This document shows, one piece after another, positions 30,241-36,421 of a stretch of 64,000 nt of DNA. Within the stretch, counting starts at the first letter, position 1. Each line of letters begins with the position of its first letter. The stretch comes from Vezdaea acicularis (Eukaryota), in contig JAPEUI010000041.1 in NCBI GenBank assembly GCA_026025075.1, positions 62,001-126,000 of the forward strand, read 5' to 3'. The position numbers were made by a program, and so were the translations under genes. The notes beneath the pieces were generated by a model. The model was not told the origin of the DNA and searched no databases. It was given only the letters and a program-made list of their open reading frames with translations.

Positions 30241-32336
30241 TCATCGGCCGCGACGGGACCGCTTGGCTTTGCGGCCTCCCAGCTGTTTGATGACGAAGAC
30301 ATCGCTCTCTTCGGTTTTCCCCTCACGCTCCTTGACATACGGATGAGCAGCGAGGGCCCCCGGGTCAGGTACAGCAGGCACATCGACACCAGACCCGGAG
30401 TCGGTGCCGTTCATGAAAATTTCCGCCGTTAGTGGTGGGAGAGGCAGCGCGAGACGAATGTCAGAGTTGGAGCCATGGTCTAGCTTGCCAGTCCATAGGC
30501 TGCTTCCAAATGTCGTCCCCCAGAGACGCGAAGTTTCATTCCTCAGTGACAGGTTACCAATAGCTAGGTCAGCTGGGTTTTGGCTTGATCCGGACGCTTC
30601 TGCGACGTCTTTCGGATTCCGCGCCCTCTCTATATATCCAGCCATGGCGAATGACGGACCCTGAGACGCAAAAACGTCTTTCATATCCGGCCCGTTAAGG
30701 CCTTCTTTCTTCGCCTTTCTAATCACTTCAAGCAACTCTGACAGTCGTGCGCGTACTGGGGGAGACATCGGTTGACAGGTCGTGCTCAGGCTCTTCAAGT
30801 CCATCGGCATTGACCGTGCAATACTAAGCAGGGTATGCTTTGCCATGACATATTGAACGCCGTCGTCTTCATCTCGAGCAACCCTGTCTCTCCATTCATG
30901 CACTGCCCTCAAGACAGAGAACTGGACTTTGTCAAACATGCCGGGCGTGCGCGAGAGCATGTTGTACCAACCACCTGACCCTTTCCCGGTCTTGGCATCG
31001 TAAGTGAATCGCTCATATCGTTGTAAGGATGTATCCTTAGAGTTCTGTAAGACCGTCAAGATGCGGTTCTCTTCGGGATTTTGCAAGTTGGATCTTTCTA
31101 CTAGCTCGTTCCGCATCCTGTCAAATATATAAAGGAGAAAATGGGTATCGGAGCGGGCGTAATTGAACATTTCTTCCGGTAAGGGCCGTATTCGCCAGTC
31201 AGCCATTTGATATTTCTTGTCGGCGTCAAAATTGACAAATCTAGAAAGAAGTGAGGCCAGACTTGCTTGGGGGTATCCTAGAGCCCTGGCAGCGTGATAA
31301 GTATCAAACAACCCAACCACGTAGAGACCTAAATCTCGCTGAAGCCAGACGATGTCCATGAACGCTCCGTGAAAAACCTTGATTATGCTTGGATCAGCAA
31401 ACACGACGTTCAGCGCCTGTAGCTCCGTTCTCCAAGGTTGAATTGTATCGATTATCCAATCTTGGTCACGAGTGCTTATCTGCATTAGAGAGACAATACC
31501 AATGTATGACCTATTATCGTGATGTTCCAGGTCGACCGCAATCTCCTTTGCCGCCTTCAGCTGAGTAACCATCGTCCACATCGAATCTATCGAGTCAACA
31601 AAGACGGCCTTTGTTGACTCGTAAGGTTTTGGTGGCTGAGGTTCGCACACCATATACATTGAGGGGGGGTAGTTGTAATTAGATATCTCCGTCTCATAAG
31701 GATTTCTATACTGTATTTGACCTGTTCCGTTTTCCAGCAATTCTAAACTATCCTCAAGAAGTACGGAAGCGTGGGGTTTAGACTTCAAGAGAGGTTTGAA
31801 GGGTTCGCTGCTGTGATTCTCCACCTTGGTTTGGAAGCCAAGCTGGGGTTTCCGAATGTTTTGGGTCCGAAACTCTTTTCCTAACTGACCTGGATGTTGT
31901 GTCTGTTTCGTTCTTGGTGTAGTCACCTACAGGAATCAGTATTCATGTATAGGTCTCTCTTGCGGTTCCTTACTTGGTCCCCTCCCACACTCGAATGTTC
32001 CTTGGCGACTCCCGCATATTCGTCGAGGTAGGTGTCCACTTTTTCAAGCAGGCTATCCACCACATCTACAACATCTCTCCAACTATCCTCAATACCTTCC
32101 ACAGAACGTAACTTTGGGGCCGCAATACGTGGATGAGAAGCTGCGTTGTTTAGTAATGTTTGGGCCAACGAAAGCAAACGAGCGCTTTGCTCATCGACAT
32201 GAGACCCTGTTCGAGGATCGAGAGATCGTTGAAAGGGCAAATCTTGGGCAGTGACTTTTGCCACTGCTTTAGTAGTAGAAAGCAAAGACGAAGTTATAGA
32301 GTCAGACAGCGACTGGTAGTCTGGCGCAGGTTCCAT
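30241..32336 (-). CDS. RRP6: Nuclear exosome 3'-5' exonuclease Rrp6
   Basis: PMC2NT N-terminus, DEDD-Y motifs (IAVDLEHH, HGAFMDI, YARSDTH) and HRDC domain (WRDRVAR). Intron 31927-31973. Confidence 0.93.
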
Positions 32337-33689
32337 AGCAGGGTCGGCGTTGTCAATTCTGAAGACCTGATGGCTGAAGCTTCAGATCCATTTGGATATT
32401 CTGACACCTTTGGAAAATGTATATTTGTCCTTGCATCACAAATTTTAGCGGAATCTGGCATGAAAAGGCGTCGAATTGTTTCTGCCTCGGCTCATGCACA
32501 AAATATTTAGCGAGTTGTACGCGTTGGTGTCACGCATTTTGGACTTGCTGCAACGAATCTGCTTTACAAAGACCATAATTATATACTCAACTGTGGACTA
32601 TGTCAGCATCGCTTGCTCCAGAATGCAATGAACGCAAAGAGTCTGTGAATAATCGGATTTTTCTGCATTCTGGTAACAGGACTAATTAGCCATCTAGGCG
32701 TTACGATGCGTGCTTTCTTAATTGGTACAGCGAGAGTCCGTGGTCTCTTTCGGGGTTTTTGGAATGCAAACTTACACAGACAGAATTCCTTAAAGGTAAC
32801 GCATCAAATGACGACTGTGAGCCGCTTTTTAGGCAATACAAAGCATGTCTAAATGTAAGTTGAGTTCAGCACAGCTTTCACGGTTGTTGAGTTCTCACGC
32901 GACTGCAGAAAGCACTCAAGGATAAAGGCATCGATAAATTGATCCAGGAGGCCCGAATTGACAACCAGGACAACGACGCCGAAAACATGCGACGCACATG
33001 TAATTAGGCCCTTGCACTACAATTCATACCCAAGCTGACATGATGTAAAGAACAAGAACCCAACTGTATGAATATAGTCTACTCTCTTAACCGCTCTATT
33101 CGGACCAACATCTTGAATATAACGGCGACATGAAATTGAACCAGATAGCATGAATAACACTGTGAAGACTAAAGTGATTGGAAACTGTCACAGGAAATTC
33201 TTCACCAGTGCTCCTTCAGTCACGCCTCCAGCATAGAACTTAAACTGAACTGAATCAAATTTGAGGCCTGTATCTTTGCCCAATAAGCAATCTTGGAGAT
33301 GTCATTTTCGGGAAAGCGCGCAACTGTCCCTGGCAGCTCGCTAATCCAGCCAAAGGGCAGTGGTACGTTGAAGAAATGAGAGAACCAACAAAAGCTTGCT
33401 GCACTGGCTCTCTGAGGGCGATCTAGACATCAGCTGTTCACTTGTTACCCGTAATGCACCTGACCGCCGCTCAGAATGTCGCTGAATCCCACACTTCCCC
33501 TTCAAAATCGAAATTAAGTCATACATCTTTGAAAGCTACTCCATGAATCTCTTCCCAAAGGCAATTAATCCCACAAGAAGCCGCGACGATATTTCTTGTG
33601 CCGCCGACTGTACTTTGTTATCGCACATATCTACACCCACAGATCAGGACTCAGCTTGGGAGTGATGCGTCAATGGTAGCGGCTGATTT

Positions 33690-34080
33690 ATGCACCCTTT
33701 CTCCGTCCTAACCCTCGGGATCTTTGTAGCCGGCTACATCACCGCCCGGTGGGATCTAGTAACGAGACTTTATGAGCTTGCTATATTTGCCTGGGATCAC
33801 GGAGTGGTTGTAGGTATCCCAGATTGCGCTCCCTTCTGGCGAAGCTCTATCTAATTCCATGAATTCTCAGACTCGTGCGGCCAAAGGCTTTGCCATCCTG
33901 TCGGTGTTCTTCTTTCTTTTCATCTTACCATTTGAGCGAGTCGCAGCTTGGGAAACAGCTTTAGTGAGCAAATAGTTGCCTAATACGTGGGAAGCATCGA
34001 CTAACACAATGTAGCATCCAAGATCGGGATCCGGGGGAATATCTGCGCGAGAACAATTAAGGCGAAGGGGGTCATTCTAG
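33690..34080 (+). CDS. 92-aa putative membrane microprotein, 3 exons, immediately upstream of GPI1
   Basis: Exons 33690-33809, 33871-33963 and 34015-34080. Introns gtaggt..ctaat..cag and gtgagc..ctaac..tag. Spliced product: MHPFSVLTLGIFVAGYITARWDLVTRLYELAIFAWDHGVV/TRAAKGFAILSVFFFLFILPFERVAAWETAL/HPRSGSGGISAREQLRRRGSF*. Confidence 0.75.
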
Positions 34081-34099
34081 CTTGCTTAGCAATGAGATT

Positions 34100-36421
34100 A
34101 TGGTCACAAGCGCTAGGTTGATGCGGATATTTTGGCCACTTGATGCACCTCGAAACGGCTCGCCAGGAGTTATAGTAGGTTGGCGGAACTCAAACCTAGA
34201 CGTGACGGTGGTAGCAATCCTCGAAGATGTCGATGTGAGTGCCTCAAGCCTAAGCCTTGACAAATCACTTCTGACTCTTTTCGTAGCCGCGGAGCGTCGG
34301 AGATGCTTTGCGAGCCGGCAAGCTATATCGTAACAGCCAGCACTCCATTGCCACCATTTTTTTGCTCTGCGAGAGGCAGTCTATGCAGGTTCTGGGTTCA
34401 ACAAACCCGAAGACCACGCCAGAAAGCTTCAACTCGTCCCACATATATGTCTACACCGCAGTGTCTCGGTTTCCAAGAGTATTCTGTCCCATGGAGGCTG
34501 CCGTTAGCGTACAGATGATCATGTTTGAGAGACCCCAGCCTACAAGAATGCAGTACATGTCGTTGGACCCTATACCATTGGCACTAGGCGATGATATTGA
34601 GAAACCTAATTCCATTGACGAAGCAAATGAAGGAGAACAGCAGAGGGTGGCTAAAAAGCTGGAGCTAGTTGAAAAATTAAAGCTTCACACCGTTACTAAA
34701 CATCCACCGTCTCAGAAAGAGCTTGCCCTAACCGCTATCCTAAACCAAGTTAACTGCTCAATGGAGATGAGCAGACTCTTGCACACTAATGTAGGGTTTG
34801 TGGGAGCCCGGTCTAGAAGGAGTCTTAGCGTAGGAGAACGAGTGGTTGAGTCCGCGTCAACTTTATGGGACTACATCATCTACAAGATATGGAGCTTAAT
34901 CACCGTATGGGCATACCCGACGATCCGGCAGGCCTTTTTTATCGGTCTTCTATGCCACCGAATAGTTGCAGAGGTTATCTTGACGGTTCTCGAATGGAGA
35001 GTTCGGCCGGATTACGCGGCACTGAAGGACATTTCAGCAACGGCGCAACAAGTTGACATTAGACTTCAACAATTCTGCTACTGGCCACTGCAGTATTTGA
35101 CTCTGCGCAAAAGAAAGAACACTTGGGAGAGTATCACCCACAGTCACCCGGACTATATAAGATTCTATAATAGCCTTTGGCTTGTTGCGAATGACGTGAT
35201 TATCGGCATTGCTCTTGGAGCCTACATCATTGACAACAAGTCATGGGTAGCCTTTCAGATCGACAGTATTCTCAGCACTTATACGGTCGACGGGCTTCAA
35301 CGAATGATCAATTGGCTGATGGACTGGCCGGCTGGTCTTAAGCTAAATAATGAATTGGCTGCATTCCTCGGTGATCTGTTCTTATGGGTGATAGAATATT
35401 GGGCAAGTGAGTCCGCCGTTCTCAAGCTACCCAGAGTAATACATGGCTAATTGGGATAGGTTGTGTGGCTGGTCTAAGGCCATTACTACCTCATGTAATC
35501 TTCTTCATTGGATTCTCGAGTTTTGCTGGTGCTACTATGCCAATCTCGCTTTTCTCTGACCTTCTATCCATCCTCACGCTTCATATATACTCCTTCTACG
35601 TTGCGTCTGCTCGCATTTTCAACTGGCAATTGACAATCATCATTTCGTTGTTCCATCTTTTCCGAGGCAAGAAACGTAATGTACTTCGAAACCGGATAGA
35701 TTCGTGTGACTACGACCTAGACCAGCTTCTCCTTGGAACGATTCTTTTCACCCTTCTTTTCTTCTTGCTTCCAACCGTTGCTATTTTCTATATGACTTTT
35801 GCATCAGCGCGGATGATAATCATTTCGCTCAAGGCGGCGTTGGATACATTGCTTTCATGTCTTAATCACTTCCCCCTCTTTGCATTGATGCTCCGCATAA
35901 AAGATGCGCGCAGGCTACCAGGTCAGCAGGATTTGCTCCTTAAACGCAGAAGTGAGCTGACTATTTGGGACAGGTGGAATTCAGTTTGAGCTTCAAGACG
36001 ATCATTTCCCTTCAGTCGAAGATGCTAACCTTCCACAAACATCCTACATCCGCCTCAAGGTGTGCTTTCTCTTCTACTTTCTACTTTCTAATTGCTAGCA
36101 TCTCCTTGAGCTTATGGTCAGTGCTGACGCTTCGGCTAGTCTGTTCCGCTCCCGTTCCGCTCCATGTTCCACCAATACTTCCAACTCGGCCATCGAATCC
36201 GAAAACACTACCTCTCGCCGCGAGTGATCCTCTGCCTCGCCACGGGCCGCTTCGTGCCCCCCATACATCGGCGCAACCTTTACAGCCTGCAATACAGCAT
36301 GCTACCGGCCCGAAGAGCGGGGATTGCGGAAATGTGGACGCAACTCACAACACCGAAGGCGACGACCAACGGCGTCGCAAAGAAGAGTCAGGTGTACTAC
36401 GCAAGGCGAGGGTATCACTGA
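34100..36421 (+). CDS. GPI1: GPI-GlcNAc transferase subunit Gpi1 (PIG-Q)
   Basis: MRIFWP..GVIVGW N-terminus, QQVDIRLQQFCYWP, WLMDWPAGLKLNNEL and SLFHLFRGKKRNVLRNRIDSCDYDLDQLLLGT. First intron 34235-34286. Confidence 0.93.

Follow-up and report, generated by a model that had tools for sequence, protein, structure and literature searches.

The window analysed here, a 64,000-nucleotide stretch of the genome of Vezdaea acicularis (contig JAPEUI010000041.1, positions 62,001 to 126,000), carries a small spliced gene for a microprotein of 92 amino acids (aa) directly upstream of GPI1, the homologue of human PIG-Q, whose product belongs to the glycosylphosphatidylinositol (GPI)-N-acetylglucosamine (GlcNAc) transferase. 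In the reading that we favour, at a probability of about 0.6, the two genes form a conserved dicistronic unit of filamentous ascomycetes, in which a short leader upstream open reading frame (uORF), the 92-aa microprotein open reading frame (ORF) and then GPI1 follow one another. The microprotein gene is confirmed as real, far beyond chance. Its dicistronic expression is what we infer, and this appears well supported by comparative data and by the assembled transcripts of relatives.

The microprotein gene and its family

A first-pass annotation of the window, made from the letters alone, had described three short exons joined by two introns into a 92-aa ORF with two hydrophobic segments and a C-terminal RRRGSF. 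Translation of the three exons (279 nucleotides (nt) of coding sequence (CDS) in total, equal to 92 aa) bears out the ORF, and both hydrophobic segments and the RRRGSF end are present in it. The end of the TAG, the GPI1 ATG in another frame and the additional ATG between them were all found where they had been placed (Table 1). A longer form of the microprotein with an upstream in-frame start was rejected, as an in-frame TGA at 33684 lies directly 5' of the ATG.

Table 1. Features of the microprotein-GPI1 locus, numbered from the first letter of the window
Feature	Position	Strand	Remarks
Mini-uORF	33665..33679	+	ATG + 3 codons + TAG; ends 10 nt before the microprotein ATG
Microprotein exon 1	33690..33809	+	Codons 1-40: first hydrophobic helix and invariant amphipathic stretch; T at -3 of start
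Intron 1	33810..33870	+	61 nt, phase 0, after codon 40; GTAGGT...CAG; CTAAT branch-like site
Microprotein exon 2	33871..33963	+	Codons 41-71 (31 aa): second hydrophobic helix; sequence variable, hydrophobicity constant
Intron 2	33964..34014	+	51 nt, phase 0, after codon 71; GTGAGC...TAG; contains ACTAAC
Microprotein exon 3	34015..34080	+	Codons 72-92 (21 aa) and TAG at 34078-34080; basic tail ending RRRGSF
Inter-ORF spacer	34081..34099	+	19 nt; out-of-frame ATG at 34092, 8 nt 5' of the GPI1 ATG
GPI1 (PIG-Q homologue) CDS	34100..36421	+	Pfam PF05024, tblastn; stop 36419-36421
Rrp6-like gene (divergent upstream neighbour)	31923..32336	-	PMC2NT domain, E 1.4e-28

The gene had also been called hidden, and this does not hold, many public genomes already carrying an annotated 92-aa protein. 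A search with exon 1 matches 1040 database proteins (E up to 0.01), and among the 120 matches listed the identity to exon 1 is 93-100% over all 40 residues. Numerous relatives are 92-aa NCBI entries labelled 'hypothetical protein'; other 92-aa entries are misnamed 'phosphatidylinositol glycan, class Q', 'PIG-Q' or 'gpi1' without having a Gpi1 domain. Named members come from at least six classes of Pezizomycotina, namely the Eurotiomycetes, Dothideomycetes, Sordariomycetes, Leotiomycetes, Orbiliomycetes and Pezizomycetes, and the presence of the gene in the last two, which branch early, therefore dates it to the base of the Pezizomycotina. A profile search of 1.84 billion representative sequences returned 251 matches at E up to 0.001, and the 150 matches listed comprise only the microprotein family, its intron read-through calls and fused models. 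The protein is present in many annotations yet uncharacterised, and it is often misnamed or fused to its neighbour.

For comparison at the DNA level, 80 loci were retained out of 225 relatives detected in metagenome records. Together with the window these make 81 sequences, 78 of which yield a gene model of 91-93 aa (56 distinct CDS); the three without a model (L025, L047 and L075) are cut by a contig end or a chimeric join. In the modelled loci, introns are confined to two phase-0 sites, one following codon 40 and the other codon 71. Intron lengths range from 46 to 117 nt, and intron 1 (51-117 nt) has the same site in every intron-bearing locus. Both introns are found in 32 of the distinct CDS, one in 4 and none in 20, the intron-free set including contigs that resemble complementary DNA (cDNA).

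Codon comparison across the family shows the predicted microprotein to be under strong purifying selection. The proportion of differing synonymous sites (pS) is 0.74, near saturation, versus 0.16 at nonsynonymous sites (pN), and therefore it is the protein sequence, not the DNA, that is conserved. The ratio of nonsynonymous to synonymous substitution rates (dN/dS) has a median of 0.088 over 1225 pairs, with 0.057 for codons 2-40, 0.185 for codons 41-71 and 0.083 for codons 72-92. The conservation across Pezizomycotina that the first-pass annotation had proposed to test is supported. Two sequences on short contigs (P0235 and P0365) make up a divergent branch, about 50% identical to the main group, which keeps the AGYITAR core and the C-terminal tail.

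Linkage to GPI1

In 75 of the 80 loci tblastn places GPI1 directly 3' of the microprotein ORF and on the same strand. The remaining five contigs stop 2-80 nt past the microprotein stop, and the first GPI1 codons are still visible in two of these. GPI1 follows, 6-63 nt past the microprotein stop, in every one of the 75 loci with enough downstream DNA, so that the proposed fixed adjacency is borne out by all loci able to show it. The GPI1 start is set by a conserved Met, followed eight or nine residues later by the motif RIFWP/RVFWP. Measured to this Met, the spacers of 52 distinct loci span 6-32 nt, with a median of 19.5; L048 has 19 nt and L074 has 63 nt. An internal ribosome entry site would not fit into 6-32 nt, and an Rfam scan of positions 33300-34400 of the window gave no match at E up to 1.

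The sequence of the spacer drifts, and its length modulo three is distributed 18/18/16; no frame is kept, and readthrough into GPI1 is therefore ruled out. Fusion with GPI1, whether by readthrough or by splicing, was rejected on the conserved stop together with this drifting frame. A second ATG precedes that of GPI1 by exactly 8 nt (ATG-N5-ATG) in about half of the loci, and in some Dothideomycetes-like loci this ATG opens a three-codon ORF whose TGA overlaps the GPI1 ATG.

The adjacency has left its mark on public annotations. Among the 120 best GPI1 database matches (P0245-P0364), 23 are models that carry the microprotein as an N-terminal extension of Gpi1, joined at differing, non-conserved points through invented introns. 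Three more fused models (P0120, P0141 and P0149) occur among the microprotein matches, and P0149, from Beauveria, additionally fuses an upstream small protein with a cysteine motif. These fused models are annotation artefacts. The locus accounts in this way for a recurrent error, about one in five of the GPI1 entries sampled having a false N-terminus, and the naming of 92-aa entries as PIG-Q or gpi1 follows from the adjacency and the fused models.

Transcripts of relatives

Several of the metagenome contigs are cDNA-like. L036 (2669 nt) equals the genomic loci L042 and L044 minus three introns, at 99.4-100% identity, and its microprotein intron is excised exactly after codon 71. The contig holds the 92-aa ORF at 178-456 and a 711-aa GPI1 ORF at 477-2612, the latter 99% identical to GPI1 of Alternaria arborescens, with the microprotein stop and a 20-nt spacer intact between them. 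L047 likewise corresponds to L026, L027 and L030 minus four introns, and the shorter L029 gives the same microprotein intron junction. Nucleotides 1-114 of L047 are unmatched in the genomic loci and read like the beginning of a message for photosystem II D1. The chimeric join marks the contig as RNA-derived. In addition, the three introns present in L053, a relative at 80-86% identity, are all missing from L028, and L014 is without both microprotein introns of L074. The 5' ends of the cDNA-like contigs L014, L036, L028 and L037 lie 69-293 nt upstream of the microprotein ATG.

Both introns are spliced in these contigs as the first-pass annotation had predicted. Its further claim, that one mRNA encodes both proteins, is backed by the spliced contigs L036 and L047, which span both ORFs but are assemblies and not single molecules.

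Searches of the literature on fungal bicistrons, GPI1 and uORFs found no paper on this locus or protein. A preprint on Iso-Seq of Fusarium graminearum (10.1101/2021.11.08.467853) gives 914 polycistronic transcripts; the part of it available to us indicates that ORFs of about 100 aa were required, so a 92-aa ORF may have escaped. Bicistronic or polycistronic RNAs are not mentioned in a map of untranslated regions of Aspergillus fumigatus (PMC12810187).

Start contexts and leader uORFs

The two start codons differ consistently in context. At position -3 of the microprotein AUG, 52 loci have T in 45 cases, C in 6 and A in one, the single A coming from L076, where the start was mis-set and the true context is T. 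When the loci are grouped at 85% nucleotide identity, the 36 clusters divide into 32 with T and 4 with C, and none has a purine. For the GPI1 AUG, 46 of 52 loci, and 30 of the 33 clusters with data, have a purine at -3.

The ORF that separates these two starts is poor in AUGs. There are none in 15 microprotein CDS, one in 30 and two in 10 (n = 55; mean 0.91), where a mononucleotide shuffle leads one to expect 3.4, a codon-order shuffle 1.5 and synonymous resampling 1.6. Per 279 nt, the AUG density is 4.6 in the GPI1 CDS and 4.2 in the introns of the microprotein gene itself. At the protein level, 115 of 117 full-length family members have no internal Met. In the window, four ATGs occur between the two starts, two of which are intronic and spliced out, leaving those at 33772 and 34092.

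Leader uORFs are frequent. An upstream ATG within 80 nt of the microprotein ATG is found in 42 of 54 distinct loci, with G at -3 in 35 of the 42. In 26 of the 54 it opens a uORF of 3-9 codons that ends 0-25 nt (median 10) before the microprotein ATG, in 15 an out-of-frame uORF that overlaps this ATG, and in one a uORF of another kind. The window has a mini-uORF of the first type and also a second, out-of-frame ATG at 33673 overlapping the microprotein start. Overlapping uORFs usually stop at nt 86 of the microprotein CDS, at a TATGAG that holds the common internal ATG.

These features suggest how Gpi1 could be translated from the same mRNA as the microprotein. The weak microprotein AUG, with its pyrimidine at -3, and the nearly AUG-free ORF behind it would let many scanning ribosomes reach the strong GPI1 AUG. 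Ribosomes that translate the leader uORF, either past the microprotein AUG or to a stop about 10 nt short of it, would skip that AUG and may reinitiate about 300 nt further on, at GPI1. The frequency of the leader uORF suggests reinitiation as a second route to GPI1. The first-pass annotation had named both leaky scanning and reinitiation; the conserved weak start context and the AUG-poor ORF speak for them, but the depletion of AUGs is not absolute. In Neurospora, start context matters and leaky scanning is common, according to the accessible text of PMC7049704. As far as the part of PMC11291117 available to us goes, algal bicistrons whose first ORF (ORF1) encodes a small membrane protein use leaky scanning, the extent of which is tuned by the context of ORF1 and by any AUGs in between.

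The predicted protein

AlphaFold2 (18 sequences) gives a model with a predicted local distance difference test score (pLDDT) of 83, in which helices at residues 3-36 and 39-71 precede a tail of low confidence. Each of the 51 proteins of 92 aa is hydrophobic at residues 4-19 and 46-62, and the second helix keeps a Kyte-Doolittle mean of 2.05-2.86 in 51/51 despite sequence drift. The stretch between the hydrophobic segments (26 residues) is invariant and amphipathic. The C-terminal tail (30 residues) is basic (net charge about +4) and is assigned to the cytosol by the positive-inside rule. Among 133 database proteins with the family motif and a length of 89-94 aa, 117 end in [RK]RRGSF. In the set of 117 full-length members compared for internal Met, 96 share the same last 12 residues. 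As had been claimed, this end fits an RRxS kinase site.

No link to a known family was found. Pfam-A gave no match for any of 18 members at E up to 10, in a search whose filters drop most matches above E of about 0.1 and could miss a very remote relation, and P0244 had no Pfam match at E up to 0.01. The Gpi1 profile PF05024 has no match in the microprotein, the true Gpi1 being encoded by the downstream gene. A sequence search of PDB found no solved relative, with one chance match at E 1.3, and Foldseek against PDB returned 0 matches. VIA-align wide gave only generic long-helix matches (Z up to 5.5; root-mean-square deviation 6-26 A), which are uninformative for a two-helix protein. In the ESM Atlas only the family's own clusters were found, auto-named 'pig-Q', and no named cluster. 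The first-pass annotation had recognised the peptide as neither PIG-Y nor DPM2, and the lack of any Pfam profile match among the 18 members agrees with this. By these searches the protein is not a recognisable PIG-Y, Eri1, DPM2, DPM3 or PIG-P, and the likeness is in build alone. The tail may also resemble DPM3 and the C-terminal 14-3-3 and endoplasmic reticulum (ER)-retrieval motifs of some channels.

The product would be a helical-hairpin membrane protein of the ER, its basic tail facing the cytosol. It would be made at a fixed ratio to Gpi1 and work together with it, either as a subunit of GPI-GlcNAc transferase with an accessory or regulatory function or as a factor in the assembly of that enzyme. 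The invariant C-terminal RRxS-type site is a candidate phospho-switch. A more specific proposal, which we put forward tentatively and consider rather unlikely as a whole, is that of a lineage-specific subunit or regulator of the enzyme. Its ratio to Gpi1 would be set by the uORF, the weak AUG and the AUG-free ORF, and its RRxS-type end would be a kinase switch of the protein kinase A (PKA) type, possibly with 14-3-3 or ER-retrieval logic, coupling cAMP-PKA signalling to GPI synthesis, like Eri1 and Ras in yeast.

Comparison with known systems

In humans, PIG-Y is the downstream ORF of its mRNA, and the upstream PYURF protein is unrelated to GPI. The pair is named as a characterised human bicistronic transcript in the accessible part of PMC13303939. 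The locus described here resembles it in that one nuclear mRNA would combine a small conserved ORF with a subunit of GPI-GlcNAc transferase. It differs in that the large subunit, Gpi1/PIG-Q, is downstream and the microprotein upstream, and there is no sequence relation.

Similar in layout are the bicistrons of green algae such as the OST4 and TOM22 loci, which, in the portion of PMC11291117 available, likewise have a small membrane protein as ORF1, a weak start with few or no AUGs behind it, short spacers and a good context at the second ORF. The present locus belongs to Ascomycota instead and often adds a leader uORF.

The arrangement of the leader recalls GCN4 and cpc-1. In delayed reinitiation, a rescanning ribosome cannot use an AUG that comes too close after a very short uORF, and here too a uORF, of 3-9 codons, ends 0-25 nt before the next AUG and is followed by a long AUG-poor stretch. 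The difference is that the ORF skipped here encodes a conserved protein and that the uORF is absent in some loci (12/54). The uORFs of cpc-1 are named in PMC5487733, as far as its available text shows.

With regard to the product, PIG-Y/Eri1, DPM2 (yeast Yil102c-A) and PIG-P/Gpi19 are likewise small proteins, built as two-helix hairpins and genetically associated with the enzyme. PIG-Y and Eri1 are shorter than 92 aa, and the DPM2, DPM3 and PIG-P families have Pfam models. The microprotein differs from these small subunits by its invariant amphipathic stretch of 26 residues and its basic tail of 30 residues. In a predicted model of the human enzyme (PMC12182360, seen in part), PIGP, PIGY and DPM2 form V-shaped two-helix membrane domains, and these contact PIGA and not PIGQ, unlike the Gpi1 partner proposed here. 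According to the same source, the accessory protein ARV1 docks on PIGQ. ARV1 provides a precedent for an accessory membrane protein that sits on PIGQ/Gpi1 and tunes the enzyme, but it is a multi-pass protein without likeness to the microprotein, whose own binding to Gpi1 is putative.

Alternative explanations

Several observations weigh against a dicistron, or against the role that we propose for its product. The transcript evidence consists entirely of contigs from relatives, not from Vezdaea acicularis; these are assemblies, so two overlapping transcripts would give the same contig. The scanning path to GPI1 is not fully clear, given the out-of-frame AUG at nt 82 that is kept in 38 of 55 microprotein CDS and the spacer AUG 8 nt before the GPI1 AUG in about half of the loci. 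The comparison of the 1.6 AUGs expected from synonymous resampling with the 0.91 observed indicates that most of the depletion lies in protein composition, and in 12 of 54 loci the 80 nt before the microprotein ATG hold no leader uORF. Furthermore, the loci were retrieved by a pattern from the conserved exon 1, and unlinked or divergent copies may be missed. A role with Gpi1 is our best guess, drawn from the linkage. According to the part of PMC8949851 available, BLAST finds all yeast GPI proteins except GPI15 in Colletotrichum graminicola; this would include a counterpart of ERI1, so the microprotein need not replace Eri1.

The dicistron could be real and the microprotein unrelated to GPI synthesis, the two proteins sharing a transcript and nothing else, as PYURF does with PIGY. 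The human pair named in PMC13303939 is a precedent; its upstream protein is a separate one. The searches above gave no sequence or fold link to any subunit of GPI-GlcNAc transferase. Linkage to GPI1 in all 75 informative loci and in six classes, and a predicted two-helix hairpin build that resembles the small subunits of the enzyme, point circumstantially the other way, and we regard an unrelated protein as quite possible though somewhat doubtful.

Two overlapping transcription units are unlikely. Here the microprotein mRNA would be polyadenylated inside GPI1, GPI1 transcription would start inside the microprotein gene, and the spacer would be a frozen compact arrangement. The assembled contigs cannot separate one RNA from two overlapping ones, and overlapping units are known in Aspergillus (brlA, from the title of a reference in PMC12810187). 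Such an arrangement leaves unexplained, however, why all 36 clusters have a pyrimidine at -3 of the microprotein AUG, why the ORF is AUG-poor and free of internal Met in 115 of 117 members, and why 52 of 54 distinct loci keep a spacer of 6-32 nt despite drift in sequence and frame. The 5' ends of the cDNA-like contigs, 69-293 nt upstream of the microprotein ATG, also speak against it.

Improbable, in our view, is a uORF acting mainly in cis, whose C-terminal 12 residues would stall the ribosome at the stop and so gate the translation of GPI1. Fungal uORFs that encode arrest peptides exist, the arginine attenuator peptide being an example; the identity of the last 12 residues in 96 of 117 members and a stop codon within about a ribosome footprint of the GPI1 AUG would suit such a function. 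The N-terminal 40 residues, which would be outside the ribosome at termination, are nevertheless the most constrained part (dN/dS 0.057 versus 0.083 in the tail), the hydrophobicity of helix 2 is kept under drift as in a membrane protein, and 92 codons with two introns are unlike known arrest uORFs. A role in cis could coexist with a role of the microprotein in trans. That GPI1 uses the three exons as an alternative 5' coding part, extending the N-terminus of Gpi1 as in the fused models (23 of 120 GPI1 entries, plus P0120, P0141 and P0149), is scarcely credible, since the stop after GSF is present in 56 of 56 distinct CDS, the spacer keeps no frame (18/18/16), the fusion points differ and are not conserved, and the spliced L036 retains both the stop and a 20-nt spacer.

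Significance

The fungal cell wall requires GPI anchoring, and the first enzyme of the pathway is an antifungal target. To our knowledge, all lists of the fungal subunits of this enzyme derive from yeast and mammals. A near-invariant membrane protein tied to GPI1 since the origin of the Pezizomycotina, among which are Aspergillus, Fusarium, Botrytis and lichen fungi, would rank as a strong candidate when components or regulators missing from these lists are sought. If dicistronic, the locus would count among the oldest and most widely distributed cases in fungi of a nuclear mRNA that encodes two proteins, and it is easily dissected in Neurospora or Aspergillus nidulans. As to the enzyme as a target, jawsamycin acts on Spt14/Gpi3 (PMC7341893, from the part of the text available).

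GPI1 and the upstream neighbour in the window

The ORFs of GPI1 in the window match the Pfam family Gpi1 (PF05024) at E 3.6e-40 and 4.2e-60. Introns at 34235-34286 and 35407-35459 give a spliced model of about 686 aa, in which a third intron is uncertain. The candidate for it, at about 35984-36139, measures 156 nt and has the unusual donor GTTTGA; its splicing is uncertain because the surrounding protein aligns poorly with relatives. On the other side of the microprotein gene, about 1.35 kb separate the divergently transcribed Rrp6-like gene from the microprotein ATG, and this interval is expected to hold the shared promoter region.

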